Source of the DNA: an uncultured Chitinophagaceae bacterium
GTDB taxonomy: Bacteria; Bacteroidota; Bacteroidia; Chitinophagales; LD1
Length of the DNA: 64,000 nt
Direction: 5' to 3'
Assembly: GCA_964398475.1 (NCBI GenBank)
Contig: CAYNMP010000003.1
Span: forward strand, 137,269 to 201,268
In this document: piece by piece, positions 33,205-51,654 of the stretch
How the letters are laid out: each line of letters starts with the position of its first letter
How positions within the stretch are numbered: the first letter of the stretch is position 1
Notes under the pieces: model-generated
The model's input: the letters and a program-made list of their open reading frames with translations, nothing else
What the model was told of the DNA's origin: nothing
The model's database searches: none
Program-made: the position numbers and the translations under genes

Positions 33205-33225
33205 GATTTTATTTGGTTTTAAAAT

Positions 33226-34014: not shown

Positions 34015-34042
34015 ACTTGCTGAATTTAGTTTTGACTAGAAA

Positions 34043-34900
34043 TTATCTTAACGGAATATTCAACATCGCACGTGTCTCTTCAATAGTGGCTACTTCGCGA
34101 CCAATCATGCGTACCATTTTCGCAGCCGCTTCAACTAATTCGCCATTGCTTTTTGCCATTTCGCCCTCCGGCAAGTAGAAGTTATCTTCTAATCCCACAC
34201 GAATGTTTCCATCGATCGTAATTGCCGCAGCAATAGCTTGCCATTGTTTTCGTCCGATGCCAATCACCTGCCAATGCGAACCTTCAGGAACTGATGCCGC
34301 TTGATGCAATAAGTTTTTCGTTGAAATAGGAATACCTCCCAAAACGCCCATCACGAAACTAAACACATAGGGCTTTTGCAACAATCCCATATCAATTAAC
34401 GGCATGGCATTATTGATGTGCCCATTATCGAACACTTCCATTTCCGGCACTGTACCTGCTTCTTTCATTTTCTCTAAATAGAATTGAATGTCTTTGAACG
34501 AATTTTGAAACACAAAATCGTGATAGAATTCTTTCGTCTTTGGGGAATAAATACCATAGTTCATCGAACCCATATTCAACGCAGCCATATCCGGTTTCAA
34601 TGCAGTGATGTGGTGAATACGCTCTTCGCGTGAAAGCCCTATGGCGCCTGTACTGTAGTTAATGATGGCAGTCGGACAAAGTTTTCTTACCTCCTCGCCT
34701 ATTCTTCTGTAGGTTTCAATATCATATGCCGGTGCGCCATCATCCTGACGAGCATGAATATGCAACACACTTGCTCCGGCATCAACAGCACGTTTGCCTT
34801 CTAAGGCAATTTCTTCGGGTGTGTAAGGAATATACGGACATTGTTCTCGTCTTGCTAAAACGCCTGTAAGCGCTGCGGTGATTACAATTTTCTTTGCCAT
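34043..34900 (-). CDS. Beta-keto acid cleavage enzyme family protein (BKACE / DUF849, 3-keto-5-aminohexanoate cleavage enzyme-like)
   Basis: 285 aa. N-terminus KIVITAALTG. Zn ligand motif VLHIHAR (HxH). Later VGLEDN. Length and order match the Kce family. Confidence 0.8.
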   Translation of the reverse strand: MAKKIVITAALTGVLARREQCPYIPYTPEEIALEGKRAVDAGASVLHIHARQDDGAPAYDIETYRRIGEEVRKLCPTAIINYSTGAIGLSREERIHHITALKPDMAALNMGSMNYGIYSPKTKEFYHDFVFQNSFKDIQFYLEKMKEAGTVPEMEVFDNGHINNAMPLIDMGLLQKPYVFSFVMGVLGGIPISTKNLLHQAASVPEGSHWQVIGIGRKQWQAIAAAITIDGNIRVGLEDNFYLPEGEMAKSNGELVEAAAKMVRMIGREVATIEETRAMLNIPLR

Positions 34901-34988
34901 TTTTCGGGTTGTATTTGTTGTTGGTTAATTGTTTTGCGTTTTATAAGCTATTGCCAAGTTATAAATAGTTTGAAAATTCAAAATGTAT

Positions 34989-35813
34989 TTATTTTCCCTT
35001 CCACACCGGTTTGCGTTTTTCAGCGAAAGCAGTAATGCCCTCGGCAGCATCTTCGGTTTGTACCGCCTTACCCAGCATGCTTTTCAAGAAGAGCTGACGA
35101 TCATTCTCCGGCACCGTTTTCAATGCATCGAAAGCCTCTAAACCCAATCGAATAGCCGATGGGGAATACTCCATAATTTCTTCTGCCAATGCTTGTACTT
35201 TGCTGTCGAGTTCTTCTGCTAATACTACTTCCGATACCAAACCCAATCGTAATGCCTCCTGCGCATCAGCAGATTTCGCTCGCATACAAAAATCGAGCAC
35301 CGCCCGCGATGGCATAATGTTCAACATACTCTGCATCACTTGGAAAGGATATAATCCGCGTTTCACTTCCGGCAGACTAAATGTGACATTAGGAGTAGCG
35401 ATCACATGCGTACAACCACACACAATCAAAAAGCCACCCGCCAACACAGGCGCATGTACTTTAGCAATACACGGTTTATGCAATCCCGAAAACACATCTG
35501 CCAACACCACCTCACCAGTCGGTTCAGGAATGGTAGAATTCGTTTCACTGCCACTCGCCAAGAAGGCCTTCAAATCGGCACCCGCACAAAAAATATCACC
35601 ATTGGCTTGAATCACCACCACCCACACTTCGTGGTTGAAATGCGCGTAATGTAAGGCATAGGCAATCTCGCGGAATAACACCGGATTCATCGCATTTTTC
35701 TTCTCCGGTCGATTCAGTGTTATCGTCAACACATGTCCGTTTTGCTCCACCAACAAATGCGCAAAGGTTTGCTGTTCGAGGGCTAAAGCCTGTTCTTTAG
35801 TATACAACTTCAT
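34989..35813 (-). CDS. Crotonase-fold enoyl-CoA hydratase/isomerase family protein
   Basis: 274 aa. Motifs ITLNRPEKKNAM and FCAGADLK. In a by-eye alignment the first catalytic Glu of hydratases is replaced (LAGGFLIVCGC versus GGGxELA). The second Glu is present (LPEVKRGLYP). Confidence 0.75.
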   Translation of the reverse strand: MKLYTKEQALALEQQTFAHLLVEQNGHVLTITLNRPEKKNAMNPVLFREIAYALHYAHFNHEVWVVVIQANGDIFCAGADLKAFLASGSETNSTIPEPTGEVVLADVFSGLHKPCIAKVHAPVLAGGFLIVCGCTHVIATPNVTFSLPEVKRGLYPFQVMQSMLNIMPSRAVLDFCMRAKSADAQEALRLGLVSEVVLAEELDSKVQALAEEIMEYSPSAIRLGLEAFDALKTVPENDRQLFLKSMLGKAVQTEDAAEGITAFAEKRKPVWKGK

Positions 35814-35827
35814 CTTCGATATTTTTC

Positions 35828-37792
35828 TTATTTCATTTTAATCATCACCGTGCCGGCCTCTACAAAGGTTTTTTCCTGCACGAAAACTTCTTCTACTTCG
35901 CCATCGCTATGCGCTTCAATGGTGGTTTCCATTTTCATGGAATTCATCACCAACAAGGCTTTCCCCGATTCAATTTTATCGCCCGCTTTCACCAATACCT
36001 TCACAATTTCGCCCGGCATTGGGGCAATGTAATCGCCTTCTGCCACAGCACTTCCGGGCTCGGTGAAACGCGGTTTTTCCGAAAACTTCAACGTTCCCAC
36101 ACCCTGTTGTTGCACAAACACTTCTCCGTTTTTCGTAGCCATAGCAAAAGCTTTACGATGATTGTTTATCGTAGCCACTACTCCATGTGCATCGGCACTA
36201 TTGAGTTCCACCGCAAAACAGTTTTCACCCACCACCACATCAAAGCAACCATCGCCTTTGTGACGATATTCCACTTTTACTTCAGCGCCATTCCATTGCA
36301 AAATGTAGTGCTGCGATTGATAATAAATATTGCGCCATCCATTCAAAGTGGCACTCACCGGCTCGGTAGATTTTCTACTTTGCCAATCATATAAGAAAGC
36401 CGCAATGGCCATTTCAGCCACATCGGTAGCGCTTACTTGTTTTTGATACGCACTAAAATCGCGCTCAATTAATTTGGTATCGAAGCTGCCATCCACATAT
36501 TCCGGATGGTTCAACAATGCACCCAAGAAATCTTTGTTAGTCGTAATTCCCAATATGGTATAGTGTTGCAAAGCATAATTCATTTTCTGAATCGCCTCTG
36601 TTCGAGTGCTGCCATAAGCAATCACCTTCGCCAACATACTGTCGTAAAACACATCTACTTTCGAACCGGTTTTCACACCACTGTCGTAGCGTAAACCTTT
36701 CAATGCCGGTTCTTTGTACAACAAAATTTCACCTGTGGCCGGAAAGAAATTATTCTCCGCATCTTCCGCACAAATACGGCATTCTATAGCATGACCGGTT
36801 GTTGTTACATCTCCAATATTCAAGGGCAAACCTTGCGCTACTTCTAATTGCAGACGAACCAAATCCAATCCTGTTACTTCTTCTGTAACCGGATGCTCCA
36901 CTTGCAAACGTGTATTCACTTCCAAAAAGTAAAACGAAGCATCAGCCGGGGAATACAAAAACTCCACCGTTCCCGCATTGGTGTATTGCACCGCTCGCGC
37001 AGCCGCCACAGCCGCATCGCCCATTTGTTGGCGAGTTGCAGCGCTGATAGATGGCGATGGTGATTCTTCAATCACTTTCTGATATCGTCTTTGCAACGAA
37101 CACTCGCGCTCAAACAAATGCACATAGTTGCCATGCGTATCGCCAAAAATCTGGAACTCGATGTGCTTTGCTTTCGGGAAATATTTCTCCATCAACAACA
37201 CTCCACTGCCAAAGCCCTTCTCGGCTTCACGGGTTGCCGTATTGAAAGCGGCTTCCAATTCTGCTTCGCTATTTACTATACGCATACCCTTACCACCACC
37301 ACCGGCACTGGCTTTCAGCAAAACCGGATAACCAATCTTAGCCGCTTCTTTTTGAAAGGTTTCAAAATTTTGATCGCTGCCATTATAACCCGGCACCACC
37401 GGTACACCGGCTTTTTGCATCAATTCTTTCGCGCCAATTTTCGGACCTAATTGTTGTATAGCCGCAGCCGAAGGACCCACAAACAGGATACCCTCATCTG
37501 CACAACGCTGCGCAAACGATGCATTCTCCGATAAAAACCCATACCCCGGATGAATCGCATTAGCACCCGTTTGCTTTGCCGCAGCAATAATTTTATCCTG
37601 ATCCAAATAACTCTCGGCCGGATGCGATCCTCCAATACAAATCGCCTCATCTGCCACAGTTACAAACAACGCATCCCGATCCGCTTGCGAATACACCGCC
37701 ACCGTGCTAATACCCATCGTTCGTGCCGTTCGCATCACCCGAATCGCAATCTCCCCCCTATTCGCAATCAATAACTTTGTTATCTTTTTCAT
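35828..37792 (-). CDS. Biotin-dependent acyl-CoA carboxylase alpha subunit (biotin carboxylase + BCCP; methylcrotonyl/geranyl-CoA carboxylase type)
   Basis: Canonical start MKKITKLLIANRGEIA at ATG 37792; the track start 37804 is TTG. ATP-grasp loop GGGGKGMRIV. C-terminal biotinylation motif NSMKME. Confidence 0.85.
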   Translation of the reverse strand: MKKITKLLIANRGEIAIRVMRTARTMGISTVAVYSQADRDALFVTVADEAICIGGSHPAESYLDQDKIIAAAKQTGANAIHPGYGFLSENASFAQRCADEGILFVGPSAAAIQQLGPKIGAKELMQKAGVPVVPGYNGSDQNFETFQKEAAKIGYPVLLKASAGGGGKGMRIVNSEAELEAAFNTATREAEKGFGSGVLLMEKYFPKAKHIEFQIFGDTHGNYVHLFERECSLQRRYQKVIEESPSPSISAATRQQMGDAAVAAARAVQYTNAGTVEFLYSPADASFYFLEVNTRLQVEHPVTEEVTGLDLVRLQLEVAQGLPLNIGDVTTTGHAIECRICAEDAENNFFPATGEILLYKEPALKGLRYDSGVKTGSKVDVFYDSMLAKVIAYGSTRTEAIQKMNYALQHYTILGITTNKDFLGALLNHPEYVDGSFDTKLIERDFSAYQKQVSATDVAEMAIAAFLYDWQSRKSTEPVSATLNGWRNIYYQSQHYILQWNGAEVKVEYRHKGDGCFDVVVGENCFAVELNSADAHGVVATINNHRKAFAMATKNGEVFVQQQGVGTLKFSEKPRFTEPGSAVAEGDYIAPMPGEIVKVLVKAGDKIESGKALLVMNSMKMETTIEAHSDGEVEEVFVQEKTFVEAGTVMIKMK

Positions 37793-37804
37793 ATCCAAAA
37801 TCAA

Positions 37805-37991
37805 TTTTCAATTCCCAAATTCTTAATCCTTAAACCCTCCATCATCAAATTCCCACTCAATTGCTAAATCATTTCATTCCTAAATTCACACATTAGCATT
37901 TTATCACATTCTCCTCATCATCAAATTCCTTCCCCCATTGTTAAATCCTTTCATTGCTACATTAGCACATTAACGCATTAGCACATTATTT
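37805..37991 (-). repeat. Tandemly duplicated 76-77-bp intergenic repeat, C-depleted on the gene-sense strand
   Basis: Fills the whole spacer between the two carboxylase genes. The unit at about 37837-37910 matches the unit at about 37911-37987. catcatcaaattcc is exact at 37840-37853 and 37916-37929. The longest aligned block shows 40/51 identity. Only 7 G in 187 nt on the + strand. Confidence 0.8.
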
Positions 37992-39587
37992 CTACATCCT
38001 AAACACCCCATACCCCTCAGCGCCTTTCACCTCCGTGTTATGAATCACCTCCATGCAGAACTTCAAGTAATTGCGCGTTTCCCGCGGATCAATTACACCA
38101 TCATCCCACAACTGACCACTTGCATACCAGGCATTACTTTGCTTATCGGCTTCCATCACCATAAACTTAGCCACTTGCGCGCCTTGCTCCTCATCGTATG
38201 CAATGCCCGATTTCTCAGCCGCTTGTCGGCCAATAATTTGCATCACCCCCGCCAACTGATCAGGTCCCATTACCGCAATTTTCGAATTCGGATAGCTGAA
38301 CAAAAAGCGCGGTTTATACGCCCTCCCGCACATCGCGTAATTGCCGGCACCGTAACTCGCACCGGTAATAATAGTAATAGCCGGCACCGTAGAATTACTC
38401 ACCGCATTAATCAACTTCGCACCGTTTTTAATAATGCCCTCTTCTTCATATTTGCGACCCACCATAAAGCCCGTAATGTTTTGCAAAAACAACAACGGAA
38501 TATCTTTTTGATTACACAACTGAATAAACTGCGCCCCTTTGTTGGCAGCCTCCGAAAACAACACTCCGTTGTTCGCTAAAATACCAATCGAATAGCCATT
38601 CACTTTCGCAAAGCCTGTAATTAAGGTACTTCCGTACAACGGTTTAAACTCCGAAAACTCCGACCCATCTACAAAGCGCGCTATCAGCTCGCGTTGGTCG
38701 AACGGAATTTTAATATCAGCCGAAACAATGCCTAAAATTTCTTCAGCCGCATACTTCGGTTCTTCAATCTTTTCTTTGGCGTAATTCGCATTGCCCGGAA
38801 ATAAATTCGACATAATCTCGCGCGCCAATCGTATGCCATCTTCTTGGTCTTCCGCCAAATAATCCGACACGCCCGACACCGCACTGTGCATTTTCGCACC
38901 GCCCAAACTCTCCTCGTCTGTTACCTCGTTGGTGGCCATTTTCACCAAAGGCGGACCGGCCAAAAACACCTTCGCCTCGTCTTTCACCATAATGGTGTAA
39001 TCGCTCATGCCCGGAATGTAAGCCCCACCGGCCGTACTGTTGCCAAACACAATCGAAATGGTAGGGAACCGCGCCTTACTGCGCTGAATAATATCGCGAA
39101 AATTTGCGCCACCGTAATTAAAAATTTTCGCCTGATCCGGCAAATTCGCACCTGCACTTTCCACCATCACAATGGTTGGCAAACCGTTCTCCATCGCAAT
39201 TTCGCCCATGCGCAAGCCCTTCTGCAACGTAGCATAATCAATCGCTCCGCCCTTTATAGTGCCCACGTTCGAATTAATCATACACAGCGTGCCGCTCACA
39301 AAACCAATACCGCACACAATAGTACCGCCAGTGCCAAAGCCATCCATGCCCCAGCCGGCAAACGGACATAATTCCATAAAAGGCGAATCGCGGTCGAGCA
39401 GCAACTCAATGCGCTCGCGCGCCAGCAACTTCCCCGCAGCCTTCGTGCGTTTCAGGTATTTATCCTCGCCCTGAAACAAAGCCTCCTTCACCTTCCCGTC
39501 CAACTCCAAAATTTTCTCTTGCATCAACGCGTAGTTGCGTTTGTAGCTCTCCGAATTCGCGTTTACCTTCGATCGAAATACCGACAT
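37992..39587 (-). CDS. Acyl-CoA carboxylase beta (carboxyltransferase) subunit, methylcrotonyl-CoA carboxylase type
   Basis: 531 aa. Carboxyltransferase architecture with GKLLARERIELLLD..SPFMEL, VGTIKGGA and GNSTAGGAYIPGMSD, co-linear with MCC beta subunits. Confidence 0.85.
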   Translation of the reverse strand: MSVFRSKVNANSESYKRNYALMQEKILELDGKVKEALFQGEDKYLKRTKAAGKLLARERIELLLDRDSPFMELCPFAGWGMDGFGTGGTIVCGIGFVSGTLCMINSNVGTIKGGAIDYATLQKGLRMGEIAMENGLPTIVMVESAGANLPDQAKIFNYGGANFRDIIQRSKARFPTISIVFGNSTAGGAYIPGMSDYTIMVKDEAKVFLAGPPLVKMATNEVTDEESLGGAKMHSAVSGVSDYLAEDQEDGIRLAREIMSNLFPGNANYAKEKIEEPKYAAEEILGIVSADIKIPFDQRELIARFVDGSEFSEFKPLYGSTLITGFAKVNGYSIGILANNGVLFSEAANKGAQFIQLCNQKDIPLLFLQNITGFMVGRKYEEEGIIKNGAKLINAVSNSTVPAITIITGASYGAGNYAMCGRAYKPRFLFSYPNSKIAVMGPDQLAGVMQIIGRQAAEKSGIAYDEEQGAQVAKFMVMEADKQSNAWYASGQLWDDGVIDPRETRNYLKFCMEVIHNTEVKGAEGYGVFRM

Positions 39588-40609: not shown

Positions 40610-41428
40610 TTAGCTCTCCTTTATGTGTTCTACCCATTCAAAATAATTCGTTGTGCGCTTATGTTCTGCTCCGGCACAAACACTCTCTAAATCGGCATCG
40701 CAAATCACCCTACACGTCAATTCAGTATCCTTATTTATTGTATTGGCTGCTTTACGAGATAGCGTAGCCAAAGTAACCCCTACCGCCAAATCTGCAGTAA
40801 ATGAACCGCTCAGCGTCTTCAGTTGCCGTAATGTTTCTTCATCGCAGCCTCCAACATAAGCCAGTGCTATGCCTACTCCTCGCCATAAATCCTGTTTTCG
40901 TTCTTCAGAAAATGGCGTTATTACGTTAGTCAAGGTTTCAGGTTCTGCTTTAGCGGTGTACCACATCGAACGCCCTAAGCCTTGGTCGTACCCCCTGTGA
41001 AAGTTGCCGTTCAGCCATTCCGGTGTTTTCATTTCCTTCACAGCTATACGTTGCTTAAAGGTGCCTTCACAATAACCTACTCCATCTAATACACGCGGTA
41101 CTTGTTGTAGTTCAACAACCACTTCCACTTGCTCAATAGCAATCTTGCGTTTTGCTATCGCCCAGCCCAAGCCAATATGAATTTGTGTACTATGCTCCGG
41201 AGCCTGTTGCAAAAAGGCTTGCCAGTGCGGTAATGCGAAAGCATTCGCATTAAAATCAAGAAGCGCACGCTCCATGGCAGACGCTTCATACGCTATCGAA
41301 ATAAATGTTTTATCGTTTTGCTCCAATAATGCTATTAAAGTCGCGTCATCCGTTGTTTCGCTGGCGGTTATAGCCGATGCCTGAAACAACTGCTGAATAA
41401 GCGCCATATTCGCAACCGCCTTTTGCAT
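40610..41428 (-). CDS. DUF1702-like protein (unknown function)
   Basis: 272 aa. Segments IAYEASAMERALLD, IHIGLGWAIAKR, LDGVGYCEG, YDQGLGRSMWY and DLWRGVGIALAYVGG match my recollection of the DUF1702 pattern. The start shares one base with the halogenase stop (TAATG, 41426-41430). Confidence 0.5.
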   Translation of the reverse strand: MQKAVANMALIQQLFQASAITASETTDDATLIALLEQNDKTFISIAYEASAMERALLDFNANAFALPHWQAFLQQAPEHSTQIHIGLGWAIAKRKIAIEQVEVVVELQQVPRVLDGVGYCEGTFKQRIAVKEMKTPEWLNGNFHRGYDQGLGRSMWYTAKAEPETLTNVITPFSEERKQDLWRGVGIALAYVGGCDEETLRQLKTLSGSFTADLAVGVTLATLSRKAANTINKDTELTCRVICDADLESVCAGAEHKRTTNYFEWVEHIKES

Positions 41429-43113
41429 TAGGCCATTTCTTTCACTTCATAAAACCACAGCAAACTCACATCATCCACTACATTTTGAGCAGGTGTTACC
41501 GCACCAGTGGGTATGATATTTGGATTTACACTCTCCAAATCAAATGTGTATGGGTTGATTGCCATATCTACCGGAGTGTCTTTCGCTTGCGAACTCACTA
41601 ACCTGAAAATGCAAGTAGCCATTTGTTCCAATATTCCCATATTTTCGTTCAATTGGACTTCTAACAATTGGTCGGTTTCATGTACTTTTTCCAAACCTAA
41701 TTGGAATGCACGCATAAAGCGAATGTCAAACGGGTCGATGTATCTATTCTCAAAAACCTCTGTCTGATAGGGTTTCCAAGCTACAAACATATTTTGCATA
41801 CGCATGTTCAGCGTAGCCAATTTATCGCCCAATCCATTTTCAGTTCCAAATAAGCGCTTCAATAATTTCAAATTCACAAAGCCATTGTTGGTAAACATCA
41901 ACGAGTGAATCGACCAATACACCGCCCAATCCCAGAAGATTTTAATCACCATAATCTGCGAATTCTCCAACAACTGATATTTGTTGTGATAAATCGGCAC
42001 CCAATTCTCAACCTGACGTAGAAACGCCTGTTCATAAACCTTTGCACGTACCGAAATATCTTCGCCTTGCACATCACGTAAAATTAAATCAGATAACCAT
42101 GTATTGGCTAAGGCAATAAAATCGCTTCCCGGTGAATACAACGGATCAAGGAATGCGCCCGATTCACCGGTTAATCCCCAACGTTCTTCAGCACTGTACA
42201 TGCGGGTGGTGTTGTGCGCAAAATGTTTTAATTGCATGAAGTCGAGTACGTTCGGAGTTTCCGGTTCTAGTTTGCTGTACACCTGTGGTTCATTCACTTT
42301 CAACCACTCCATTGCTTTTTCATAAGTGTTGTAGCTGGTAAGCGGATGAATATCCTGATCGGCTACAATACCAATACTCGTGCAGCCTGTACCTAAAGGA
42401 ATAATCCAAACCCAGTAGCCTTTATCCATAAAGTGAACGGTGCTCAAATAACGTAACTTTGGCTCAAGTTTGCTTTTCCATACTTCGTTATCTGTCCACG
42501 TATCAACATCCACAACGCTTTTCACTCGCCACCACACCGAGTTGATGTTATGGTCTAACTCTTTCTGAAACCCTAATTTTCGCTTTATAAGCGATGCTCT
42601 AGAAGCGGCATCTACCACCCATTTGCCGGAAATAGTATATTCCTCTCCATTCAATTTATACGTAACTGTATTTCCTTCTTTCGTTAAATTGAAATCCTTT
42701 ACAATAGCACCACTGATAAACTTTACGCCTAAAGCTTGTACATGTTTTATCATGTAATTTTCAAAAGTTCCTCTATCGATTTGGTGACTTGGCACAACTA
42801 ATTTTCTACGTGGACCTAATTCCACACGTGTAGTAATATCATTTTTGTTGTTCGATTTGAAAAAGGCACGCAGTCCGTGTTTGGGCAATTCATGTGTTTC
42901 CAAATACTCTTTCATGCCCAACACATTTCTAAAGTAATGGCTTGCCAACTCTACGGTTGACTCTCCCACTTTATGTGCTGCCATTGGCGCATCGCCTTCG
43001 CGTTTTTCCAATATCAGAATGGATATATCTGGGTTCGAACGTTTGAGTTGAATGGATAAGGTGAGCGCAGCAAGACCGCCCCCCAAAACGATAACATCAT
43101 ATTGTTTTTCCAT
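41428..43113 (-). CDS. Flavin-dependent halogenase
   Basis: 561 aa. FAD-binding YDVIVLGGGLAALTL. HKVGES segment. The halogenase-diagnostic WxWxIP motif is present (GYWVWIIPLG). Confidence 0.7.
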   Translation of the reverse strand: MEKQYDVIVLGGGLAALTLSIQLKRSNPDISILILEKREGDAPMAAHKVGESTVELASHYFRNVLGMKEYLETHELPKHGLRAFFKSNNKNDITTRVELGPRRKLVVPSHQIDRGTFENYMIKHVQALGVKFISGAIVKDFNLTKEGNTVTYKLNGEEYTISGKWVVDAASRASLIKRKLGFQKELDHNINSVWWRVKSVVDVDTWTDNEVWKSKLEPKLRYLSTVHFMDKGYWVWIIPLGTGCTSIGIVADQDIHPLTSYNTYEKAMEWLKVNEPQVYSKLEPETPNVLDFMQLKHFAHNTTRMYSAEERWGLTGESGAFLDPLYSPGSDFIALANTWLSDLILRDVQGEDISVRAKVYEQAFLRQVENWVPIYHNKYQLLENSQIMVIKIFWDWAVYWSIHSLMFTNNGFVNLKLLKRLFGTENGLGDKLATLNMRMQNMFVAWKPYQTEVFENRYIDPFDIRFMRAFQLGLEKVHETDQLLEVQLNENMGILEQMATCIFRLVSSQAKDTPVDMAINPYTFDLESVNPNIIPTGAVTPAQNVVDDVSLLWFYEVKEMA

Positions 43114-43243: not shown

Positions 43244-44323
43244 TTAAGCCTGCTGCAATAAAATCAAACTGTAGCGTTTTCCCCAGAAATGATTAAGCAT
43301 TAACACGTTTTTGATAGACGAAAGTGGAGCCGTTTGGTTTACTTTAGTAATCTCCGGAATTGCTTGGTGACGAAGGATTTTGCAACCCAACCACATGCCA
43401 AACGATGCAGCAGTGCAATAATCGCCACATAGGTGTTTGAAGGCTAGAAATTGCTTTCCGTCAAATACATTATTTAAAGCAATATTGCTCATGGTATCAA
43501 GTTGAGTATCACCACCGGCACCGTTTATAACAACATCAATAGCATTGGCATCGAGATTGTTTTCGGTTAGAAGGGTGTGAATTTGTGCTTGTAATTCGCC
43601 CGCATCTTCCGGACGGTAAATCGTTTTCACGCCCAATAATTTGGCATAAGCATTTGACGTTTTTTCTGTTCCTAAAGTAAAGAACGCTGCGCCTTCGCCT
43701 TCAATGGTGCCTTGTCCGTCTGATTGAAACAACGTTAAATTATTGATATTTTTGCGTTTGTGTAAGCCATCGAATTGTTTAATGGCATGCTGTTCTTTGT
43801 TAGTTTCATCGAAAGCTCCCAATAATATTCGTTTTGAAGGAGTATCGGTCATTTGCATCAACGCATCTTGCAATGCATTTTCAAACGAAAAACCACGATG
43901 CGCATAGGTAGTGTTATAGTTATTACACTTCATGTTCATGGCAATAGCTCCCGAAATAGTGTTGTAGGTGCTTTGCATGAAGAATGTAGGCGTAAGTTGC
44001 TTTTCTCCGTTGTTTAAAATTTCCCAAAGAAAATTGCTGGTATCCCCAATCGCACCATATCCTGAAGCCGTGATAATGGCATCGGGCATGTCGAGTTGAG
44101 CATCTTGCGCACAAATTTTGGCAGCCGATAAGCCAATGCGCAGCAAGCGACTCATTCTGCGCAAAGCAACAGGATGAATATAGTTTTTGAATTCCGGCAA
44201 AACACAAGGCAATACATTGTCGTTGTATTCGCTGATTTCGTTGAGGAATTCGCTGTTATCGAATGTTTTCTGCGGGGAAATATTTCCCAAACCCTGTACA
44301 TAAAAAGTGGTTGTGTTTTCCAT
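43244..44323 (-). CDS. Beta-ketoacyl synthase paralogue lacking the catalytic triad (chain-length-factor-like)
   Basis: Start trimmed to ATG 44323 (MENTTTFYVQGLG...), 10 nt after the KS stop. Aligned by eye to the adjacent KS: the Cys position reads STYNTISG, the first His region reads INGAGGD, and the second reads CGDYCTAA. Confidence 0.7.
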   Translation of the reverse strand: MENTTTFYVQGLGNISPQKTFDNSEFLNEISEYNDNVLPCVLPEFKNYIHPVALRRMSRLLRIGLSAAKICAQDAQLDMPDAIITASGYGAIGDTSNFLWEILNNGEKQLTPTFFMQSTYNTISGAIAMNMKCNNYNTTYAHRGFSFENALQDALMQMTDTPSKRILLGAFDETNKEQHAIKQFDGLHKRKNINNLTLFQSDGQGTIEGEGAAFFTLGTEKTSNAYAKLLGVKTIYRPEDAGELQAQIHTLLTENNLDANAIDVVINGAGGDTQLDTMSNIALNNVFDGKQFLAFKHLCGDYCTAASFGMWLGCKILRHQAIPEITKVNQTAPLSSIKNVLMLNHFWGKRYSLILLQQA

Positions 44324-44333
44324 GCTTTTGTAA

Positions 44334-45542
44334 TCAGACTTTAGAAAATAATAGAGAGGTGTTACTGCCGCCAAAACCGAAAGAATTCGACAGCACATGA
44401 TTCACTTCCACGTTTTGCATTAACTCCTTCAATGGTGAAATACTAATTTCCGGCATTTGGTTTTCGAAATTCAAATTCGGAAACAATACATTATTTTGAA
44501 TGCTTAAAATCGAGAATACAGCTTCTACACTACCCGCTGCGGCTAAAGTGTGGCCGGTATAAGGTTTGGTAGAACTGAAAAAAGGCACGTGCTCTTGAAA
44601 CAATTTTTGAATAGCTAAGGCTTCTGATAAGTCGTTGTTTTCAGTACCCGTTCCATGGCAATTGATATAGTCTACTGCTTTCAGTTCAACGCCTGCCATG
44701 GCTATAGCGCGCGACATTGAAAGCAATGCTCCATCGCCATCCGGTGAAGATGCTGTTTGATGAAAAGCATCATTTGAATTGCTGTAACCGGTTAATTCAA
44801 CAAGTGGTTTTTTATTGAATTTGGCAACCATTTCTTCCGATTCCAAAACAACGAAAGCCGCGCCTTCACCTAGGTTAACGCCACCGCGCTGGGCATCAAA
44901 AGGATGCATCGCACGTTTATCTAAAATCATCAACGAATTGAATCCATTGAGGGTGAACTTTGAAAGCACATCACTTCCCCCACAAACTACTCGGTCTAGA
45001 ACCCCGTGTTTAATGAGCTCTGCGCCTAATATTATAGCATTAGATGCAGAAGAACAGGCCGTACTTGTAGTGCTCACATAATCTTTAAACCCAAATAAAT
45101 CAGCTACTCGCTCGGTGTGTTCACCGGCATCAGTAACGTGAGCGTAGTTTCTGAAATCTCCGTCTTTAGAGAGGTCGGTTAAGTCGGTTAATATATTTTC
45201 GAATTCACGCATACCGCCAACGGTGGTAGATGATATCAATCCGGTACGAGCTTCTTTTATGTTTTCAATATTGGCCGATGCTAATGCCTCCCGACAAGCA
45301 ATAAGGGCAATTAATGCTGTTCTTGTGAAGCCACTATTAGGTTGTACTCCTGCAATCGAACATAATTCTTCATCGGTCAGTTTTATTTCACCAACCGGAA
45401 TCGTTTCGCTGTGAATGGAGGGAAATAGTTCTAGTTTGCCAATGCCGGAACGCTTATGGAGCAATGCGTCCAGGTGTTCATTCGTGTTTTTACCAATGGA
45501 CGTAATTATCCCTGTTCCGGTAATAAACACTTTGCGGCTCAT
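44334..45542 (-). CDS. Beta-ketoacyl-ACP synthase (FabF/FabB-like KS)
   Basis: 402 aa. Active-site Cys in TTSTACSSASNAI. His motifs NCHGTGT and TGHTLAAAG. C-terminal SFGFGGSN. Confidence 0.85.
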   Translation of the reverse strand: MSRKVFITGTGIITSIGKNTNEHLDALLHKRSGIGKLELFPSIHSETIPVGEIKLTDEELCSIAGVQPNSGFTRTALIALIACREALASANIENIKEARTGLISSTTVGGMREFENILTDLTDLSKDGDFRNYAHVTDAGEHTERVADLFGFKDYVSTTSTACSSASNAIILGAELIKHGVLDRVVCGGSDVLSKFTLNGFNSLMILDKRAMHPFDAQRGGVNLGEGAAFVVLESEEMVAKFNKKPLVELTGYSNSNDAFHQTASSPDGDGALLSMSRAIAMAGVELKAVDYINCHGTGTENNDLSEALAIQKLFQEHVPFFSSTKPYTGHTLAAAGSVEAVFSILSIQNNVLFPNLNFENQMPEISISPLKELMQNVEVNHVLSNSFGFGGSNTSLLFSKV

Positions 45543-45805
45543 GCAGTTTTCGAAGCTTGTTGTTCACGGATGAATTCAGCCATGGTTGTCACGGTTTGAA
45601 ATGCCTGACGTCCCACTTTCGGATCTTCAATTTTAATGCCGTAGTTTTTCTCTAACATCACAATTAACTCCAACGAGTCTATAGAGTCCAATCCAAAATC
45701 AGGTCCAAACAAAGGGGTGTTTTCATCAAACTCCTCAGGCGTCATGCCTTCTAGGTTCAAACGACTAATGATTTCTTTCTTTAAGTTGTATATCAATTCA
45801 TCCAT
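45539..45805 (-). CDS. Acyl carrier protein
   Basis: 88 aa. Phosphopantetheine attachment motif GLDSIDSLELIVMLE. The stop overlaps the KS start (ATGA). Confidence 0.85.
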   Translation of the reverse strand: MDELIYNLKKEIISRLNLEGMTPEEFDENTPLFGPDFGLDSIDSLELIVMLEKNYGIKIEDPKVGRQAFQTVTTMAEFIREQQASKTA

Positions 45806-45870
45806 GGTGCAAATATAATAAAGAATGGTAATTTCCTTTTTGGGTTAATTCCTTAAACACAAATTAGCGA

Positions 45871-47154
45871 TTATCCTTTGTTCATCCGCGATTTGTAAAT
45901 CCAAAAACTCAAAACAAGTAACGCCACACCAAACAAAACCAAGCGGAAAATGTTCGGCAAAATAGCGGCAGTGTTTGCATTTCTCAAAAACAAATCGTTA
46001 CAAGCTTCTAAGCCCCAGCTCATTGGCGAAAAATGGCTAATGGCCTGTAAGGTTGGCGGCATTACGTATGTTGGAACCCATACGCCTCCGAGGGCTGCAA
46101 GCAATACCACTGAAACCGATCCGAATGCTAATGCCTGATGGTGCGTTTTAAAGAACACGGCAACTAATAATCCATAAGCTGTAGCCGCTATTCCTACGGC
46201 CATAGCGGTGAGAACAACACCTTCATAATTGGTTCCCAGTGAAAGACGTGCTAGCCCTAGTTTCGGCAGAAGGTAAATACCTATCGCCATCATTAATGCG
46301 AACTGCAACAAGCAAATCATGAAATAGAACAAATACTTTCCTGCAATCACCGGAAACGAAGAGCCGGAGATCAATCGCAAACGCAACATACTTCCCTCTT
46401 CGCGCTCTTTAATGAAATTACCGGCTAATGGAAACAAAATCAAAAACATGGCAAACATGGTCCATGCCGGTACGTTATGTTGCACCGAATTGGTGGTGGC
46501 GATTGCGGTTGAAGGCTGTTCGGTTTCTTTCACTACCAACGAATTGCTGAAATCAATTACCTGTTTTTTCTGTTCCGAACCCAATGCAGCCATTTGTGTT
46601 TTCAGGTTTTCGATAATCAGTTTCGATTGTGCATTGGCTGCAATTTTTTCAATGGCATTGCTAATGGCTAATTTGAAATTGACTTTTGTTACCGGATCAA
46701 ACACAAGCTCTATCGCTATTTCACGGTTGTCAACGGTATCTTTTACTTCATCGCCAAATCCAAAATTTGCCATCAGTTGCGCTACCGAATGTTTTACTTT
46801 CTTGTTTAAGGTCTTCGAAGCGTTTTGTGGTAGAATAATGGCTGCCTTGTATTTGCCGCTATGCACCCATTCGCTAGCTTGTACTTTAGTAATGGGCTGT
46901 CCGTTAACGCTGGTTACCAATTCCAAATTCTTGGCTTCTCGAAGTGAATGTTCAAATACTTCGCCCAACGAATCTTTATCGTTGTTTACATATAACACTT
47001 GAAATTTCAAATCTTGATAATCTCTGAACGGTGCATCTTGTACCAAAGCCATTACAGTTACCAAAATTAGCGGCATCAAAAAAATCATAGCTAAGCCTCC
47101 CATGTCGCGAAGCAACAACAGCAATTCTTTTCGTATGGTGGCTAATATTTTCAT
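45871..47154 (-). CDS. ABC-2-type transporter permease
   Basis: 427 aa. N-terminal TM helix, a large extracytoplasmic loop, then about five C-terminal TM helices. Lies 17 nt downstream of an ABC ATPase gene. Confidence 0.75.
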   Translation of the reverse strand: MKILATIRKELLLLLRDMGGLAMIFLMPLILVTVMALVQDAPFRDYQDLKFQVLYVNNDKDSLGEVFEHSLREAKNLELVTSVNGQPITKVQASEWVHSGKYKAAIILPQNASKTLNKKVKHSVAQLMANFGFGDEVKDTVDNREIAIELVFDPVTKVNFKLAISNAIEKIAANAQSKLIIENLKTQMAALGSEQKKQVIDFSNSLVVKETEQPSTAIATTNSVQHNVPAWTMFAMFLILFPLAGNFIKEREEGSMLRLRLISGSSFPVIAGKYLFYFMICLLQFALMMAIGIYLLPKLGLARLSLGTNYEGVVLTAMAVGIAATAYGLLVAVFFKTHHQALAFGSVSVVLLAALGGVWVPTYVMPPTLQAISHFSPMSWGLEACNDLFLRNANTAAILPNIFRLVLFGVALLVLSFWIYKSRMNKG

Positions 47155-47171: not shown

Positions 47172-47918
47172 TTAATCGCGCATGCTTTTTCCGGTTAAAT
47201 GCAGAAATAATTCTTCTATGTCTTTGCAATTCGTGTTTTGTTGCAAAAGCTCTTCACGTGTGCCTTCTGCGATTAATTTTCCTTCGTCCATAATACCAAA
47301 GCGAGTACATAATTTTTCGGCTTCTTCCATCAAGTGCGAAGAATACAAAATCGTCATGCCCTTATGGTTTAAGCCTTTCAGGATGTCGATGATTAAATTG
47401 CGCGAGTGTACATCTACGCCTGCCGTTGGTTCATCGATGATGAGTAACTTCGGTTCATGTAATAATGCCGCAATGAGGTTTAATCTTCTTTTCATTCCCC
47501 CTGAGAATGAAGCTACCTGTTCGTTTAATTTTGATGTGAGTCCGAATGCTTCTACATAATGCGCAATGGTTTCACGCAATTTTTTTCCGCGCAAACCATA
47601 CATGTTTCCAAAGTATGTCAAGTTTTCTGCAGCAGTAAGGGTTGGAAAAAGGGCGATTTCTTGAGGCGCAACACCAATTAAAGAACGAATGGTAGCGCTT
47701 TTGCTTTTTGCATCGAAACCCAAAACGTTGATTTCTCCTGAGCTGTAGGGAGTAAGTCCGCAAATCATCATCACTGAAGTAGATTTTCCGGCACCATTAG
47801 GTCCGAGCAAACCATAGATTTCACCTTCGTTTACTTGCAAAGAAAGTCCTTGTACCGCGGGCTGTTTAGCTCCGGTGTAGGTTTTTACAACTTTGTTCAA
47901 TGCAATGGCTATGCTCAT
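47172..47918 (-). CDS. ABC transporter ATP-binding protein
   Basis: Walker A GLLGPNGAGKST, signature FSGGMKRRL, Walker B LLIIDEPTAGVD. ATG 47918 overlaps the upstream stop (ATGA). Confidence 0.9.
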   Translation of the reverse strand: MSIAIALNKVVKTYTGAKQPAVQGLSLQVNEGEIYGLLGPNGAGKSTSVMMICGLTPYSSGEINVLGFDAKSKSATIRSLIGVAPQEIALFPTLTAAENLTYFGNMYGLRGKKLRETIAHYVEAFGLTSKLNEQVASFSGGMKRRLNLIAALLHEPKLLIIDEPTAGVDVHSRNLIIDILKGLNHKGMTILYSSHLMEEAEKLCTRFGIMDEGKLIAEGTREELLQQNTNCKDIEELFLHLTGKSMRD

Positions 47919-48925
47919 AATCTGGCTTTCGCCCAAAGGAATAGTTTATCAAAAAGTACTTGTTCTTTTTTGCCGATTTCATAAAGCATATCAGCGAGTT
48001 GGTCGAAGGTAACCGTATCCGATTTTCTGTTCTTACAAACGCGACTAGCTTCGTAGGCAAAAGCTCGCCATAGATCGCCAATAGCCGTCAATTCTTTCGA
48101 CATATTGAACAGTTCTTCGTCTTTTAATATAACACTTGCTTTATCCAAGAAAGCCGCATAAATAAAGCGAAATCCGGCTCCACCGGTGCCAATTTCTTCT
48201 TGCATGCGCACTACATTGCCTAACCATAAAACCGATTTTCTCGGACCTAGTTTCTTTGGCCAGTTGCGCATTCGATTCGCTAAATATTTTATGCCATTCG
48301 CACCCAAAATAGGCATAGGTGTTTTCGCCATAAAGAAGGCCACATGTTTAATGGCTTTAATCATAGCTTTATTTAAATCATACGATTTTGGGAACACCAC
48401 CGGATAGTATAATTTTCCTTTTGGTTCTGGTATGCCTTTCGCGAAACGCGCACGCTGTAAGTCTTCCGGCAAAATTTCAGTAACACCTTCCAATGTGGGG
48501 TCGCTCACTAAATACTTGCCATTCTCTTTACCGTATACAATAATGTTATGCGCATTAAAATGAAATCGATAGGCATCGGGTAAGTACGTTAAATAGAAAA
48601 CAGAAGTAAGCATACCCACCGGAATTCCTTGTTCTAGCAGGGCATCCAGCGCTTCCATTCCTTTTTGTTCGTTGCTAAAGGTTTGGCTTTTTACTTTAAT
48701 GCCTAGACTATTTGCGAAGCGTTTGAAAATATAGCTAGGCATAGTTCGGAACGATGTAACCGGAATGCCGCCCATTTTCAAAAAAGGGAAATAAGAAAAA
48801 AATAATCCTGCACCAATCCCAAATACCATAGGTTCATCAAATTCCATTCCGTGGAAACGCAATAGGTTTGACACTACTCCGTTCTCACAATGTGCTGACT
48901 GTCTATGTTCAAAGGGAATTCTCAT
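47915..48925 (-). CDS. BtrH N-terminal-domain-like protein (papain/C39-like fold, possible ACP-dependent acyltransferase)
   Basis: 336 aa. N-terminus FEHRQSAHCENGVVSNLLRFHGMEFDEPMVFGIGAGLFFSYF matches my recollection of the BtrH_N pattern, including the conserved Cys. Confidence 0.6.
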   Translation of the reverse strand: MRIPFEHRQSAHCENGVVSNLLRFHGMEFDEPMVFGIGAGLFFSYFPFLKMGGIPVTSFRTMPSYIFKRFANSLGIKVKSQTFSNEQKGMEALDALLEQGIPVGMLTSVFYLTYLPDAYRFHFNAHNIIVYGKENGKYLVSDPTLEGVTEILPEDLQRARFAKGIPEPKGKLYYPVVFPKSYDLNKAMIKAIKHVAFFMAKTPMPILGANGIKYLANRMRNWPKKLGPRKSVLWLGNVVRMQEEIGTGGAGFRFIYAAFLDKASVILKDEELFNMSKELTAIGDLWRAFAYEASRVCKNRKSDTVTFDQLADMLYEIGKKEQVLFDKLFLWAKARL

Positions 48926-49365
48926 GCGTTATTATTTTCAGTAGCACCCGTTCTCGGATCTTTGAATTTGGTGATATCCATTAATTCCTCACGCGTGATG
49001 CGAAATGCAAAAGCGTATTTATCTAGTGTTTTTGAACTCAATCGGTTGAAGAAAAAAGGTTTGGTGTGTAGCCAAACAATAAAACTCAATGTGCCCACAT
49101 AACCTGCTATAATCTCGTAGGTCATGATGTTTTGTTCTTTGTAAAACAAAACCGGACTAGCATCGCCATTCAACACTTTTTCTCGTGCGTCTTCAATATT
49201 TTCGTGTACTACATCCCAAGCTTGGCGCATCACCACGGTTTCTGCCTCCCAGCCAATGCTGTTCAGCTTTTCGTAGTGCCCTTTTTCATCGGTGGCATAA
49301 TAGAGTTTGGCTAATTTTCCTTCGTTGAGGTTATCGGTGTCTTGCGGTACTTCTTCTTTTTTCAT
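48922..49365 (-). CDS. Hypothetical protein with one predicted TM helix
   Basis: 147-aa ORF. Its stop overlaps the start of the downstream BtrH-like gene (ATGA). Hydrophobic segment EIIAGYVGTLSFIVWL. No family recognised. Confidence 0.5.
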   Translation of the reverse strand: MKKEEVPQDTDNLNEGKLAKLYYATDEKGHYEKLNSIGWEAETVVMRQAWDVVHENIEDAREKVLNGDASPVLFYKEQNIMTYEIIAGYVGTLSFIVWLHTKPFFFNRLSSKTLDKYAFAFRITREELMDITKFKDPRTGATENNNA

Positions 49366-49411: not shown

Positions 49412-50551
49412 TTAGACTACAGTATAAAGAATATAAGCAAAATTGAATCGGGCACTTTCCGGTACCATCATCAAAATTTTATCTCCGGCTTTCAATCGCC
49501 CTGAGCCCATTAATTCTTCCAACATCACAAATGGTGCTGCAACGCCTATGTTTCCTACTTTTGATAGGTTAGTGAACCATTTTTCGGCAGGAATGGCTAA
49601 GCCAATTTCACGCAACTCTTCCTCAATTTTAGGAGCGAAGAAATACGAAGAAAGGTGAGGTAAGAAATAATTTACAGACGAAACATCGAAATTGCGTTTC
49701 GCCACAATATCCTTCAACAATTTACCGCCAAACTTCACAATGTTATTGCCCAACAGGCGAGTATCTTGTTTGATAGCGAATACAGAATCGGAAGCCCAAC
49801 GATGTTGATCGATAGACGCCCAACCTGTGATGGTATGATCGGGATTTTGTAATGCTCCGGCAAACATACAGGTTGGCAATTCGTTGGCGTAAGAACGTTG
49901 GTCAATCCATTCGATTCTTAATGATAGTCCGTTTTTATTGGGTTCTGATTCCAATAATGCAGCCCCTGCGCCATCCGATAACATGAAACGCAAGAAATCT
50001 TTTTCAAAGGCCAATATCGGTTCAGTTTCTAAACGGTCGATTTTTTCGGCCTCTTCTTGGAAATATTTCGATACCATCCAGTGCGACATGCGTTCAGAGC
50101 CCACGCAAACAGCATTATCGGTGAAACCGCCTTGAATCGACATGAAGCTGTATTTCAACGATTGAATGATGTTGCAACAAGCTCCTGACGTAGCCACAAT
50201 CTCGGTTGGAGCGGCTTTTAGTTCGCCTTGTACCATTGAAGTGTGTGAAGGTAAAATCTGATCCGGTGAAGATGTTCCGCAAGCTAAAAGCTGAATATCT
50301 TCTGCTTTGAAACGCTCATCAGTAAGATTTAAAATGGCTTCTTTTGCCAATTGTGCATTAGTATGTGTTGAATTTCCTTGTCTATCGATAGCGTAGTAAC
50401 GCGTTTTGATTTGATTGCTGCGCAAAATAATTGACTTTGCACGCGATGCTTTCCCATTGATTTTACCCAATACATCCTCGATCTCTTCGTTGGCTATAGG
50501 CTCATTCGGAAGAAATTTAGCTAATCTGGTAATATATACACTTCGGCTCAT
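49412..50551 (-). CDS. FabH-type ketosynthase III, DarB-like
   Basis: 379 aa. Catalytic Cys in TSGACCNIIQS, His in YFLPHLSS, Asn in KVGNIGVAAP. The N-terminus SVYITRLAKFLPNEPIANEEIE and the C-terminus resemble the dialkylresorcinol-type KSIII (from memory). Confidence 0.75.
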   Translation of the reverse strand: MSRSVYITRLAKFLPNEPIANEEIEDVLGKINGKASRAKSIILRSNQIKTRYYAIDRQGNSTHTNAQLAKEAILNLTDERFKAEDIQLLACGTSSPDQILPSHTSMVQGELKAAPTEIVATSGACCNIIQSLKYSFMSIQGGFTDNAVCVGSERMSHWMVSKYFQEEAEKIDRLETEPILAFEKDFLRFMLSDGAGAALLESEPNKNGLSLRIEWIDQRSYANELPTCMFAGALQNPDHTITGWASIDQHRWASDSVFAIKQDTRLLGNNIVKFGGKLLKDIVAKRNFDVSSVNYFLPHLSSYFFAPKIEEELREIGLAIPAEKWFTNLSKVGNIGVAAPFVMLEELMGSGRLKAGDKILMMVPESARFNFAYILYTVV

Positions 50552-50745
50552 GTTTACTCTGTAGTTTTCAAAGGTGGTGCAAAGAAATAAAAAAATGTCA
50601 TAATAATTGCGTCTTAACTCCTCACACGCTCGCGGAAAGAAACAACCGATTTTATAAAATGTTCTGTTTCTGATAATTTAGCATTTATCGTGGAAATTAA
50701 TTCCGAACATTGTTTTGAAGTATAGTTCTATCTATTCGGAAAAAT

Positions 50746-51654
50746 ATGTATATGAAGAAGCTCTTATTGCTGTTTTTTTGCCCTTTTTTCATTCCGGCAT
50801 TCGGACAAGAAACCTTTACTGCAGGATATCGCTCCGACTCCATTATAATTGATGGAAAAGCCGATGAATGGCCCATTCCGTTTCGGTTTAGCGATTATAA
50901 CAGCCGAATCGTTTACAATATCAAAAACGATGAATCGTATCTGTATTTTTGTTTTAAAACCGATAATCGAATGACGGTAATGAAGATGCTTCGTTTAGGT
51001 TTTGATATTTCAATAGATACCACCGGTAAAAAGAAAAGGGACTGGCATTTGCAGTTTCCCATGCGCAATGCTCCCGAACACAAACCCGAGGAAGCTCGTA
51101 ATGAACTGCTTGCTGGCGATTTCCGACAAATGCAATTGCGCATGAAATCGGAGGTGAACGCTATGTTAGCCGAAGGATTTATTGGTCTACCGAATCAGGT
51201 TTTATCTTTGGCAAATACTAATGGAATTAAAGCGGCCGTTGATTTCGATAAGGAAAATGCATTTATAGTGGAGCTGGCTATTCCTTTGAATTATATACAA
51301 GTGGGTTATGCTTCTTCAAAAAAGCCTTGGACAATTACACTGAAAATGAATGCACCTCCTGCGCCTATATCAACACTTGGAGGAAATGGGGGTATGGGTA
51401 ACACCGATCGCAAGGGTGGTCTTAACCCGAATTCCATAAATGGTATGAATAACGGAATGAGCGGTGGAATGGGTAATGCCGGTATGAATAATGGTTCCGG
51501 AGCGGGCGCAATGCAAACTCAGGATATGCAACAAGCAGGCTCCAATGGCAATAACGAGTTTGATGAGCAAGAGGCGCAGCTTCAAGGTATTCGAGATGCT
51601 TCATTTTATGAAAGTTCTGAGTGGCGCTTCAAATTGTTATTAGGTTCGAGGTAG
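50746..51654 (+). CDS. Secreted protein with a Gly/Asn/Met-rich low-complexity tail
   Basis: 302 aa with a signal peptide. The IIIDGKADEWP segment is weakly reminiscent of CBM9/DOMON-type modules. Residues about 210-275 are G/N/M-rich (GGNGGMGNTDRKGG...GMNNGMSGGMGNAGMNNGSGAGA). Confidence 0.55.
   Translation: MYMKKLLLLFFCPFFIPAFGQETFTAGYRSDSIIIDGKADEWPIPFRFSDYNSRIVYNIKNDESYLYFCFKTDNRMTVMKMLRLGFDISIDTTGKKKRDWHLQFPMRNAPEHKPEEARNELLAGDFRQMQLRMKSEVNAMLAEGFIGLPNQVLSLANTNGIKAAVDFDKENAFIVELAIPLNYIQVGYASSKKPWTITLKMNAPPAPISTLGGNGGMGNTDRKGGLNPNSINGMNNGMSGGMGNAGMNNGSGAGAMQTQDMQQAGSNGNNEFDEQEAQLQGIRDASFYESSEWRFKLLLGSR

Follow-up and report, generated by a model that had tools for sequence, protein, structure and literature searches.

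Dialkylresorcinols (DARs) form the lipid half of the flexirubin pigments and also act as antioxidants and bacterial signalling molecules. In their synthesis, DarB links two acyl thioesters, one beta-ketoacyl and one alpha,beta-unsaturated, to a carboxy-cyclohexanedione that is then aromatised by DarA (PMC6836626). In Chitinophaga pinensis the genes are arranged in the order darA-darB-darG-darH-darI-darJ-darC-darD-darE (Schoener et al., 2014; PMC3992019, Table S4), and Azoarcus sp. BH72 carries darA, B, D, E, F, I, C, J and K, its polyene part being assigned to separate xanthomonadin-type (arc) gene clusters (PMC3949708). The C. pinensis genes darC, darD and darE (Cpin_6845, Cpin_6844 and Cpin_6843) and the Azoarcus genes darC, darJ and darK represent the same module. 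Here, we describe three adjacent genes for an acyl carrier protein (ACP), an active FabF-like ketosynthase (KS) and a KS-like partner predicted to be catalytically inactive (hereafter the dead KS). They lie in a 64-kb stretch of DNA from an uncultured Chitinophagaceae bacterium (GCA_964398475.1, contig CAYNMP010000003.1, positions 137,269 to 201,268), which was analysed as a whole and is referred to as the window. This trio is very probably the DarC/DarD/DarE module, located towards the 3´ end of an operon of the dialkylresorcinol (dar) type in a Chitinophagales bacterium. An initial annotation, made from the sequence, had framed it as a free-standing minimal polyketide synthase (PKS). That framing is wrong; published gene lists of dar and flexirubin clusters have included the module since 2014.

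The trio makes up genes 6–8 of a ten-gene run on the minus strand in which no gap exceeds 130 bp, in the order DarB, DarG, DarH, ATP-binding cassette (ABC) transporter ATPase, ABC-2 permease, ACP, KS, dead KS, halogenase and DUF1702 protein (Table 1). From darB to the dead KS this is the arrangement in C. pinensis, including the last gene, which is listed there as a “hypothetical protein with N-terminal KS domain”, and the assignments of DarB, DarG and DarH are backed by family matches. DarB clears the threshold of the broader StlD/DarB family and falls marginally short of that of the DarB-specific model NF053539 (547.5, cut-off 550). Unlike the published dar clusters, the window has neither darA (aromatase) nor darF (methyltransferase), and carries the halogenase and DUF1702 genes behind the dead KS instead. 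The initial annotation had limited the operon to the trio and described a minimal system without release enzymes. The operon begins further upstream, with DarB, and continues beyond the dead KS with the halogenase and DUF1702, and the earlier description arose because three genes were read out of ten. Its statement that no ketoreductase (KR), dehydratase (DH), enoylreductase (ER), acyltransferase (AT) or thioesterase (TE) is encoded holds for all ten operon proteins (Pfam and NCBIfam). The lack of a release enzyme is nevertheless misleading, because both the thioester-consuming cyclase DarB and the BtrH-like DarH use acyl-thioesters.

The module is very widespread. A genome scan returned 80 loci (designated by L and a number) from Chitinophagales, Cytophagales (Ohtaekwangia, Chryseolinea and Cyclobacteriaceae), Bacteroidales and Syntrophales/Desulfobacterales. 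Genes were counted in those 56 loci whose sequence reaches 7.5 kb or more beyond the dead KS on its upstream side; the genes present follow the same order throughout, and the frequency of each gene is given in Table 1, to which DarA can be added with 35 loci. At the protein level, the trio family comprises more than 2,400 clusters at 90% identity from Bacteroidota and from Deltaproteobacteria-type metagenome-assembled genomes (MAGs; Syntrophales and Desulfobacterales). L007 (MAG JAEUUZ01) is 97% identical to the window. The dead KS of an uncultured Chitinophaga MAG with the same operon (L020) is 45% identical to that of the window and those of Bacteroidales 39–42%. Where dar and polyene genes are split between genomic locations, as in Chitinophaga, Cytophagales, Syntrophales and Azoarcus, the trio stays with darB. 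Chitinophaga has, in addition, a separate trio in its polyene cluster (FlxM/FlxN/FlxO, see below). Both observations link the trio described here to the DAR side of the pathway.

Table 1. Genes of the ten-gene operon in transcriptional order, with occurrence upstream of the dead KS (or downstream, where stated) in the 56 counted loci
Gene product	Position	Strand	Loci (of 56)	Characteristics
DarB, StlD/DarB-family ketoacyl synthase III-like (KAS III-like) cyclising ketosynthase; first operon gene	49412-50551	minus	42	NF005293 544.6 bits (cut-off 450)
DarG, small conserved protein	48922-49365	minus	47	NCBIfam DarG_fam 134.6 bits (cut-off 70); corresponds to C. pinensis darG, Cpin_6849
DarH, BtrH-like acyltransferase	47915-48925	minus	48	BtrH_N 5.7e-50; DUF4872 2e-53; NCBIfam DarH_acyl 458 bits (cut-off 300)
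ABC transporter ATPase (C. pinensis darI equivalent)	47172-47936	minus	48	ABC_tran 1.5e-33
ABC-2 permease (C. pinensis darJ equivalent)	45871-47154	minus	48	ABC2_membrane_3 6.9e-33
ACP (DarC)	45539-45805	minus	53	88 aa; PF00550 1.9e-09; serine motif LDSIDSL
Active FabF-like KS (DarD; darJ in Azoarcus)	44334-45542	minus	55	402 aa; C163/H296/K326/H331
KS-like partner, predicted catalytically dead (DarE; darK in Azoarcus; CLF-like)	43244-44323	minus		359 aa; Ketoacyl-synt_2 7.2e-11
Flavin-dependent halogenase	41428-43113	minus	12 (downstream of trio)	561 aa with C-terminal extension; GxGxxA, HKVGES (Lys), WVWIIP, FLDPLYSPG
DUF1702 protein	40610-41428	minus	10 (following halogenase)	Pfam DUF1702 1.2e-43; start overlaps halogenase stop (TAATG)

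The three genes and their coordinates were correct as first annotated. The stop codon of the ACP gene overlaps the start of the KS gene in an ATGA, as had been noted, and 10 bp separate the KS stop from the start of the dead KS, for which the ATG at 44323 agrees with the N-termini of homologues and a longer open reading frame (ORF) from 44398 does not. The active KS carries, as the initial annotation had it, the motifs TACSSAS, CHGTGT and GHTLAAAG, which align with the Cys/His/His of FabF, and the three residues together with the active-site Lys (C163, H296, K326 and H331) are conserved in 70 of 70 orthologues. Its alignment with FabF structures is full length (2.8e-57), and this is what speaks for seeing both proteins as duplicated housekeeping FabF/FabB fatty-acid synthases. 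Against the equivalog models, however, the KS stays well below threshold (288 bits for FabF, TIGR03150, cut-off 493.75; 181.6 for FabB, NF005935, cut-off 630), its partner retains no residue of the catalytic triad, and in two or more phyla both genes are a constant part of a secondary-metabolite operon; we find a housekeeping origin of this kind scarcely credible.

The paralogue contains the sequences STYNTISG, INGAGGD and CGDYCTAA, which had been proposed from a by-eye alignment as the positions of the lost triad. STYNTISG, however, is not equivalent to the catalytic Cys. Both phmmer alignment to FabF and an hhalign profile-profile alignment of 77 dead-KS paralogues with 70 KSs (probability 96.5%) align the Cys with Gly144 of the HRGFSFEN motif, about 20 residues further downstream. 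The first catalytic His is opposite Gly268 (in INGAGGD) and the second opposite Asp301 (in CGDYC; Glu in most homologues). The loss of Cys, His and His is upheld on this corrected alignment, and the family as a whole reads G/G/(D,E) at the triad in 77 of 77 sequences. The active-site Lys is retained as K296 and is followed by His297; G144, G268, K296 and H297 are invariant in all 77. An AlphaFold2 (AF2) model of the dead KS (pLDDT 88.3, pTM 0.89) has a complete two-lobed thiolase fold, with the ishigamide KS/chain-length factor (CLF), the actinorhodin CLF (1tqy_B) and FabFs as best Foldseek matches (TM about 0.77–0.81). At the sequence level, the solved structure that it matches best is chain 7f28_A, which shares its PDB entry with a KS (7f28_B). 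As judged from alignment and predicted fold, the paralogue is a KS-like protein whose structure is intact and which is catalytically inactive. Q117, T119 and N121 (FMQSTYN) are likewise strictly invariant in the 77 sequences, as is the pair K296-H297, and E148 is found in 75 of them. These residues outside the triad suggest a conserved site distinct from the canonical KS active site.

The proposal that the paralogue is a CLF-like partner is upheld. It is borne out by a thiolase fold without the triad and by the position beside an intact KS in 55 of the 56 loci, but does not extend to the aromatic type. CLFs of aromatic PKSs have a Gln at the Cys position, used for decarboxylative priming. In the dead-KS family, the residue at this position is Gly144 throughout. 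This bears on a reading of the trio as a minimal type II PKS of the aromatic kind that makes an unreduced poly-beta-keto chain. A KS, an inactive partner and an ACP without a KR is indeed the minimal aromatic architecture, and one of the best structural matches is the actinorhodin CLF, but the partner has Gly in place of Gln in all 77 sequences, the window contains no cyclase, aromatase or KR of that type, and the family loci with enough flanking sequence lie in dar and flexirubin clusters. We regard such a PKS as highly improbable. The initial annotation had left a choice between this chain, which is unlikely for the reasons of the Gly and the missing cyclase and aromatase, and the borrowing of housekeeping fatty acid synthase enzymes. 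The latter is plausible for FabD and perhaps FabG/FabZ, given the precedent of the aryl-polyene and stilbene systems.

For the function of the DarC/DarD/DarE module we propose, tentatively and with somewhat less than even confidence, that it supplies a beta-ketoacyl thioester. The KS and its dead paralogue would form a heterodimer in which the paralogue makes up the other half and lines part of the acyl tunnel, in the manner of chain-length factors; we infer this from their conserved adjacency. The pair would condense a fatty-acyl primer with malonyl-ACP, housekeeping FabD loading malonyl onto the dedicated ACP, and the product would most likely remain a 3-oxoacyl-ACP after a single round of elongation, because the operon encodes no KR, DH or ER. 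DarB could then join the 3-oxoacyl thioester head-to-head with a 2-enoyl thioester to give the carboxy-cyclohexanedione. As the 3-oxoacyl thioester would be the substrate of DarB, the cyclisation itself would be the release step. DarH may subsequently acylate the lipid and the ABC-2 transporter export it, and the halogenase probably acts on the ACP-bound beta-keto intermediate or on the ring. The chemistry of DarB would match one unreduced beta-keto product. If true, the supply of unreduced beta-ketoacyl-ACP to DarB, or of an acyl donor to DarH, would fill a gap in the flexirubin/DAR pathway. Taken as a whole, the explanation that combines identity as a dar module with this mechanism is one to which we give about even credence.

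Several observations weigh against it. In E. coli, darAB alone already yields DAR, and the trio is therefore not essential for formation of the ring. The trio is found without DarB within 10 kb in 14 of the 56 loci (Bacteroidales and some Deltaproteobacteria/Pseudomonadota MAGs), accompanied there by DarG/DarH/ABC or polyene genes, and overall it co-occurs more with DarH and the ABC genes (48 loci) than with DarB (42 loci). In two loci (L011 and L012), the only companions of the KS/dead-KS pair are the halogenase and DUF1702. Flavobacterium johnsoniae has a single trio, and this is placed between the dar and polyene genes. The end product is uncertain in the present organism because DarA is absent from the window. 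Finally, what the literature offers on the experimental role of the dar KS pair is gene tables only, which leaves genomic context as the footing of the mechanism.

Variants of the module were seen in some of these groups. Six loci from Bacteroidales and Deltaproteobacteria/Pseudomonadota MAGs (L069–L071, L036, L041 and L047) have the order DarG-DarH-ABC-ABC-(TE-KS-CLF)-ACP-KS-deadKS without DarA and DarB. This variant cannot make a DarB-type resorcinol locally. A B12-radical-SAM gene stands ahead of the module in L069, L070 and L047, and in the first two of these a FabZ-like gene as well. In a Syntrophus MAG, a gene for an AMP-binding (acyl-activating) enzyme is found directly before darA-darB (L026:1284-2648) and is possibly the primer-loading enzyme of the module.

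The trio may instead be an iterative elongation module similar to FlxM/FlxN/FlxO of the flexirubin polyene cluster (Cpin_1865-1867 in C. pinensis; Fjoh_1089/1088/1087 in F. johnsoniae), which consists of a homologous ACP, active KS and inactive “condensing enzyme” in the same order as here. It would then carry out several rounds on the dedicated ACP with a KR and DH from elsewhere (the polyene cluster or FabG/FabZ), and the resulting enoyl- or polyenoyl-ACP would either serve DarB as Michael acceptor or supply the acyl group for transfer by DarH to the resorcinol or another acceptor before ABC export. The distribution of the trio is in favour of this, as its tightest association is with DarG, DarH and the ABC genes (47–48 of 56 loci) and persists without DarB, and as it lies between the TE-KS-CLF and the deacetylase-LolA polyene genes in Bacteroidales and Chryseobacterium. 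Both C. pinensis trios match the single F. johnsoniae trio, DarD/DarE and FlxN/FlxO doing so at similar identity. The family name of DarH refers to BtrH, a butirosin biosynthesis protein that uses an acyl-ACP donor, and in the stilbene pathway type II fatty acid synthase (FAS II) enzymes elongate, reduce and dehydrate an ACP-bound Michael acceptor. Ohtaekwangia, which has an operon from DarA to the dead KS, is flexirubin-positive, a phenotype that does not discriminate between a role on the DAR side and one on the polyene side. On the other hand, the FlxM/FlxN/FlxO genes are flanked by thioesterase-KS-small CLF genes upstream and polysaccharide deacetylase-LolA-LolB2 genes downstream in a cluster that includes a DH and a KR, and the window has none of these. 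A search of the 64-kb window for the flexirubin-polyene genes (thioesterase, small CLF, FabZ-like DH, deacetylase, LolA, LolB2, AMP-ligase and AAT) returned none, and the operon itself lacks a KR and DH. C. pinensis has FlxM/FlxN/FlxO as a second trio in its polyene cluster, so that the dar-linked copy likely has a job of its own, and the separate location of the polyene part in Azoarcus also speaks against iteration. Overall, we consider iterative elongation the foremost of the alternatives, albeit a rather doubtful one.

Compared with other dar operons, the locus has two unusual features, the absence of DarA and the appended pair of halogenase and DUF1702 genes. A tblastn search with the DarA of Ohtaekwangia (UniRef name “Dialkylrecorsinol condensing enzyme”) found no DarA in the window or in L001–L008, which are 95–100% relatives of it. 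With the same query, 37 related loci showed DarA beside darB, among them L009, an 84% relative (L009:2776-3690; another example is L022:2708-3631). In the window, the place of darA (50552-51654) is taken by a divergent gene of 302 aa (ORF 50746-51654) that is Gly/Asn-rich. This ORF was considered as a diverged DarA and rejected on account of its signal-peptide-like N-terminus, its Gly/Asn-rich region and a BLASTP comparison with DarA (E = 26). Should the rest of the genome lack DarA as well, a cyclohexanedione may be made instead of a resorcinol.

The halogenase gene starts 130 bp downstream of the dead KS. Among solved structures, the protein is closest to PltA, to CmlS and to two chains, 5buk and 5bva, whose annotation says no more than flavin-dependent halogenase. 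The substrate of PltA is bound to a carrier protein. The pair of halogenase and DUF1702 behind the dead KS is confined to the Chitinophagales relatives L001–L012, and a halogenase homologue is found between DarA and DarB in L017 and L018. For the DUF1702 protein there was no NCBIfam match, no relative among solved structures and almost no literature. A speculative and, in our view, very unlikely possibility is that cryptic halogenation replaces the aromatase, in that the halogenase would act on the enolisable C2 of the 3-oxoacyl-ACP and, after cyclisation by DarB, loss of halide and CO2 would aromatise the ring without DarA. This would jointly explain the missing KR and DH, the missing DarA and the fixed KS-deadKS-halogenase-DUF1702 unit. 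The presence of both DarA and the halogenase in L009 weighs against it.

The appended pair also raises the question of whether the last five genes, from ACP to DUF1702, are a separate unit that makes a halogenated beta-keto or derived lipid and is merely juxtaposed to DarB-DarG-DarH-ABC. Such a unit is seen as ACP-KS-deadKS-halogenase-DUF1702 in L011 and as KS-deadKS-halogenase-DUF1702 in L012, and in both the adjoining 9 kb or so of upstream sequence lacks dar genes, although DarB may lie elsewhere in these genomes. In L004 and L007, a 3-kb gene on the opposite strand parts the permease from the ACP and leaves both halves undisrupted. In a neighbour-joining tree without support values, the clade of the window is placed apart from the main dar-linked clade, and the kinship of the halogenase with PltA could likewise indicate a pathway of its own. 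In the window and in L001–L002, L008 and L009, however, the five genes are contiguous and co-directional with the genes from DarB to the permease, the gap before the ACP being 65 bp in the window (45806-45870), and DarH is directly linked to the trio in L010 and L045. On balance, an independent five-gene unit appears unlikely. The gene inserted in L004 and L007 (L004:5416-8211) encodes a protein of 931 aa with a type IX secretion system (T9SS) sorting tail and a faint Reg_prop match; it splits the operon into two units in otherwise nearly identical strains.

DarG is the only protein of the operon without a Pfam match. It is 62–70% identical across orders and contains a hydrophobic stretch, IIAGYVGTLSFIVWLH. 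In the modelled structure, the N-terminus is unstructured or a beta-hairpin and leads into a helical domain. The AF2 model (pLDDT 71, the N-terminal 48 residues unmodelled) is mostly helical with weak matches to XRE-type helix-turn-helix proteins. DarG was considered as a hidden dehydratase or thioesterase, and rejected because the model is helical and not a hotdog fold. The end of darG is overlapped by the start of darH by 4 bp. A scan for promoters and terminators across 39.5–51.8 kb gave fewer consensus sites than shuffled sequence and has no bearing on the transcription units. Downstream of the operon, a small protein with a T9SS tail is followed by a cluster on the minus strand (32032-39587) that resembles leucine/branched-chain acyl-CoA catabolism, with a carboxyltransferase, biotin carboxylase/biotin carboxyl carrier protein, enoyl-CoA hydratase, a beta-keto acid cleavage enzyme (BKACE), a short-chain dehydrogenase/reductase and an acyl-CoA dehydrogenase. 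The GC content of this cluster is 0.44–0.465 compared to about 0.39 in the rest of the window, and its GC skew is strongly negative. Its location next to the dar operon may be a coincidence.

Apart from the dar and flexirubin clusters, three groups of systems are comparable to the module. Among structural relatives, the actinorhodin and ishigamide KS/CLF pairs (1tqy and 6kxd) are top matches (TM about 0.77) and share the organization of an adjacent, coupled KS and inactive partner. They differ in the residue at the Cys position (Gly, not Gln, in the dead KS), identity is low (17–18%), and the window has no aromatic-PKS tailoring genes. The aryl-polyene systems are represented by PDB entry 7f28, which we take to be the ApeO-ApeC pair, and presumably also by 6qsp. 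As in the pair described here, the active FabF-like KS of ApeO-ApeC is matched with an inactive protein of Ketoacyl-synt_2 type, but 7f28_A is 204 residues long and aligns only to residues 52–174 of the dead KS, which with 359 aa has the full fold. Aryl-polyene systems rely on KS-CLF heterodimers and a borrowed FabD (PMC12624758). Their clusters encode their own KR and DH, both of which are missing from the operon of the window. The third system, the Photorhabdus stilbene pathway (StlD cyclase, StlE ACP and StlC aromatase), is the functional analogue for a role of the trio in precursor supply. It has no BtrH-like gene or ABC transporter, and its condensing enzymes are those of housekeeping FAS II rather than a KS/dead-KS pair. 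It resembles the present operon in that a DarB-type cyclase is fed with ACP-bound precursors made by other condensing enzymes with the help of primary FAS II.

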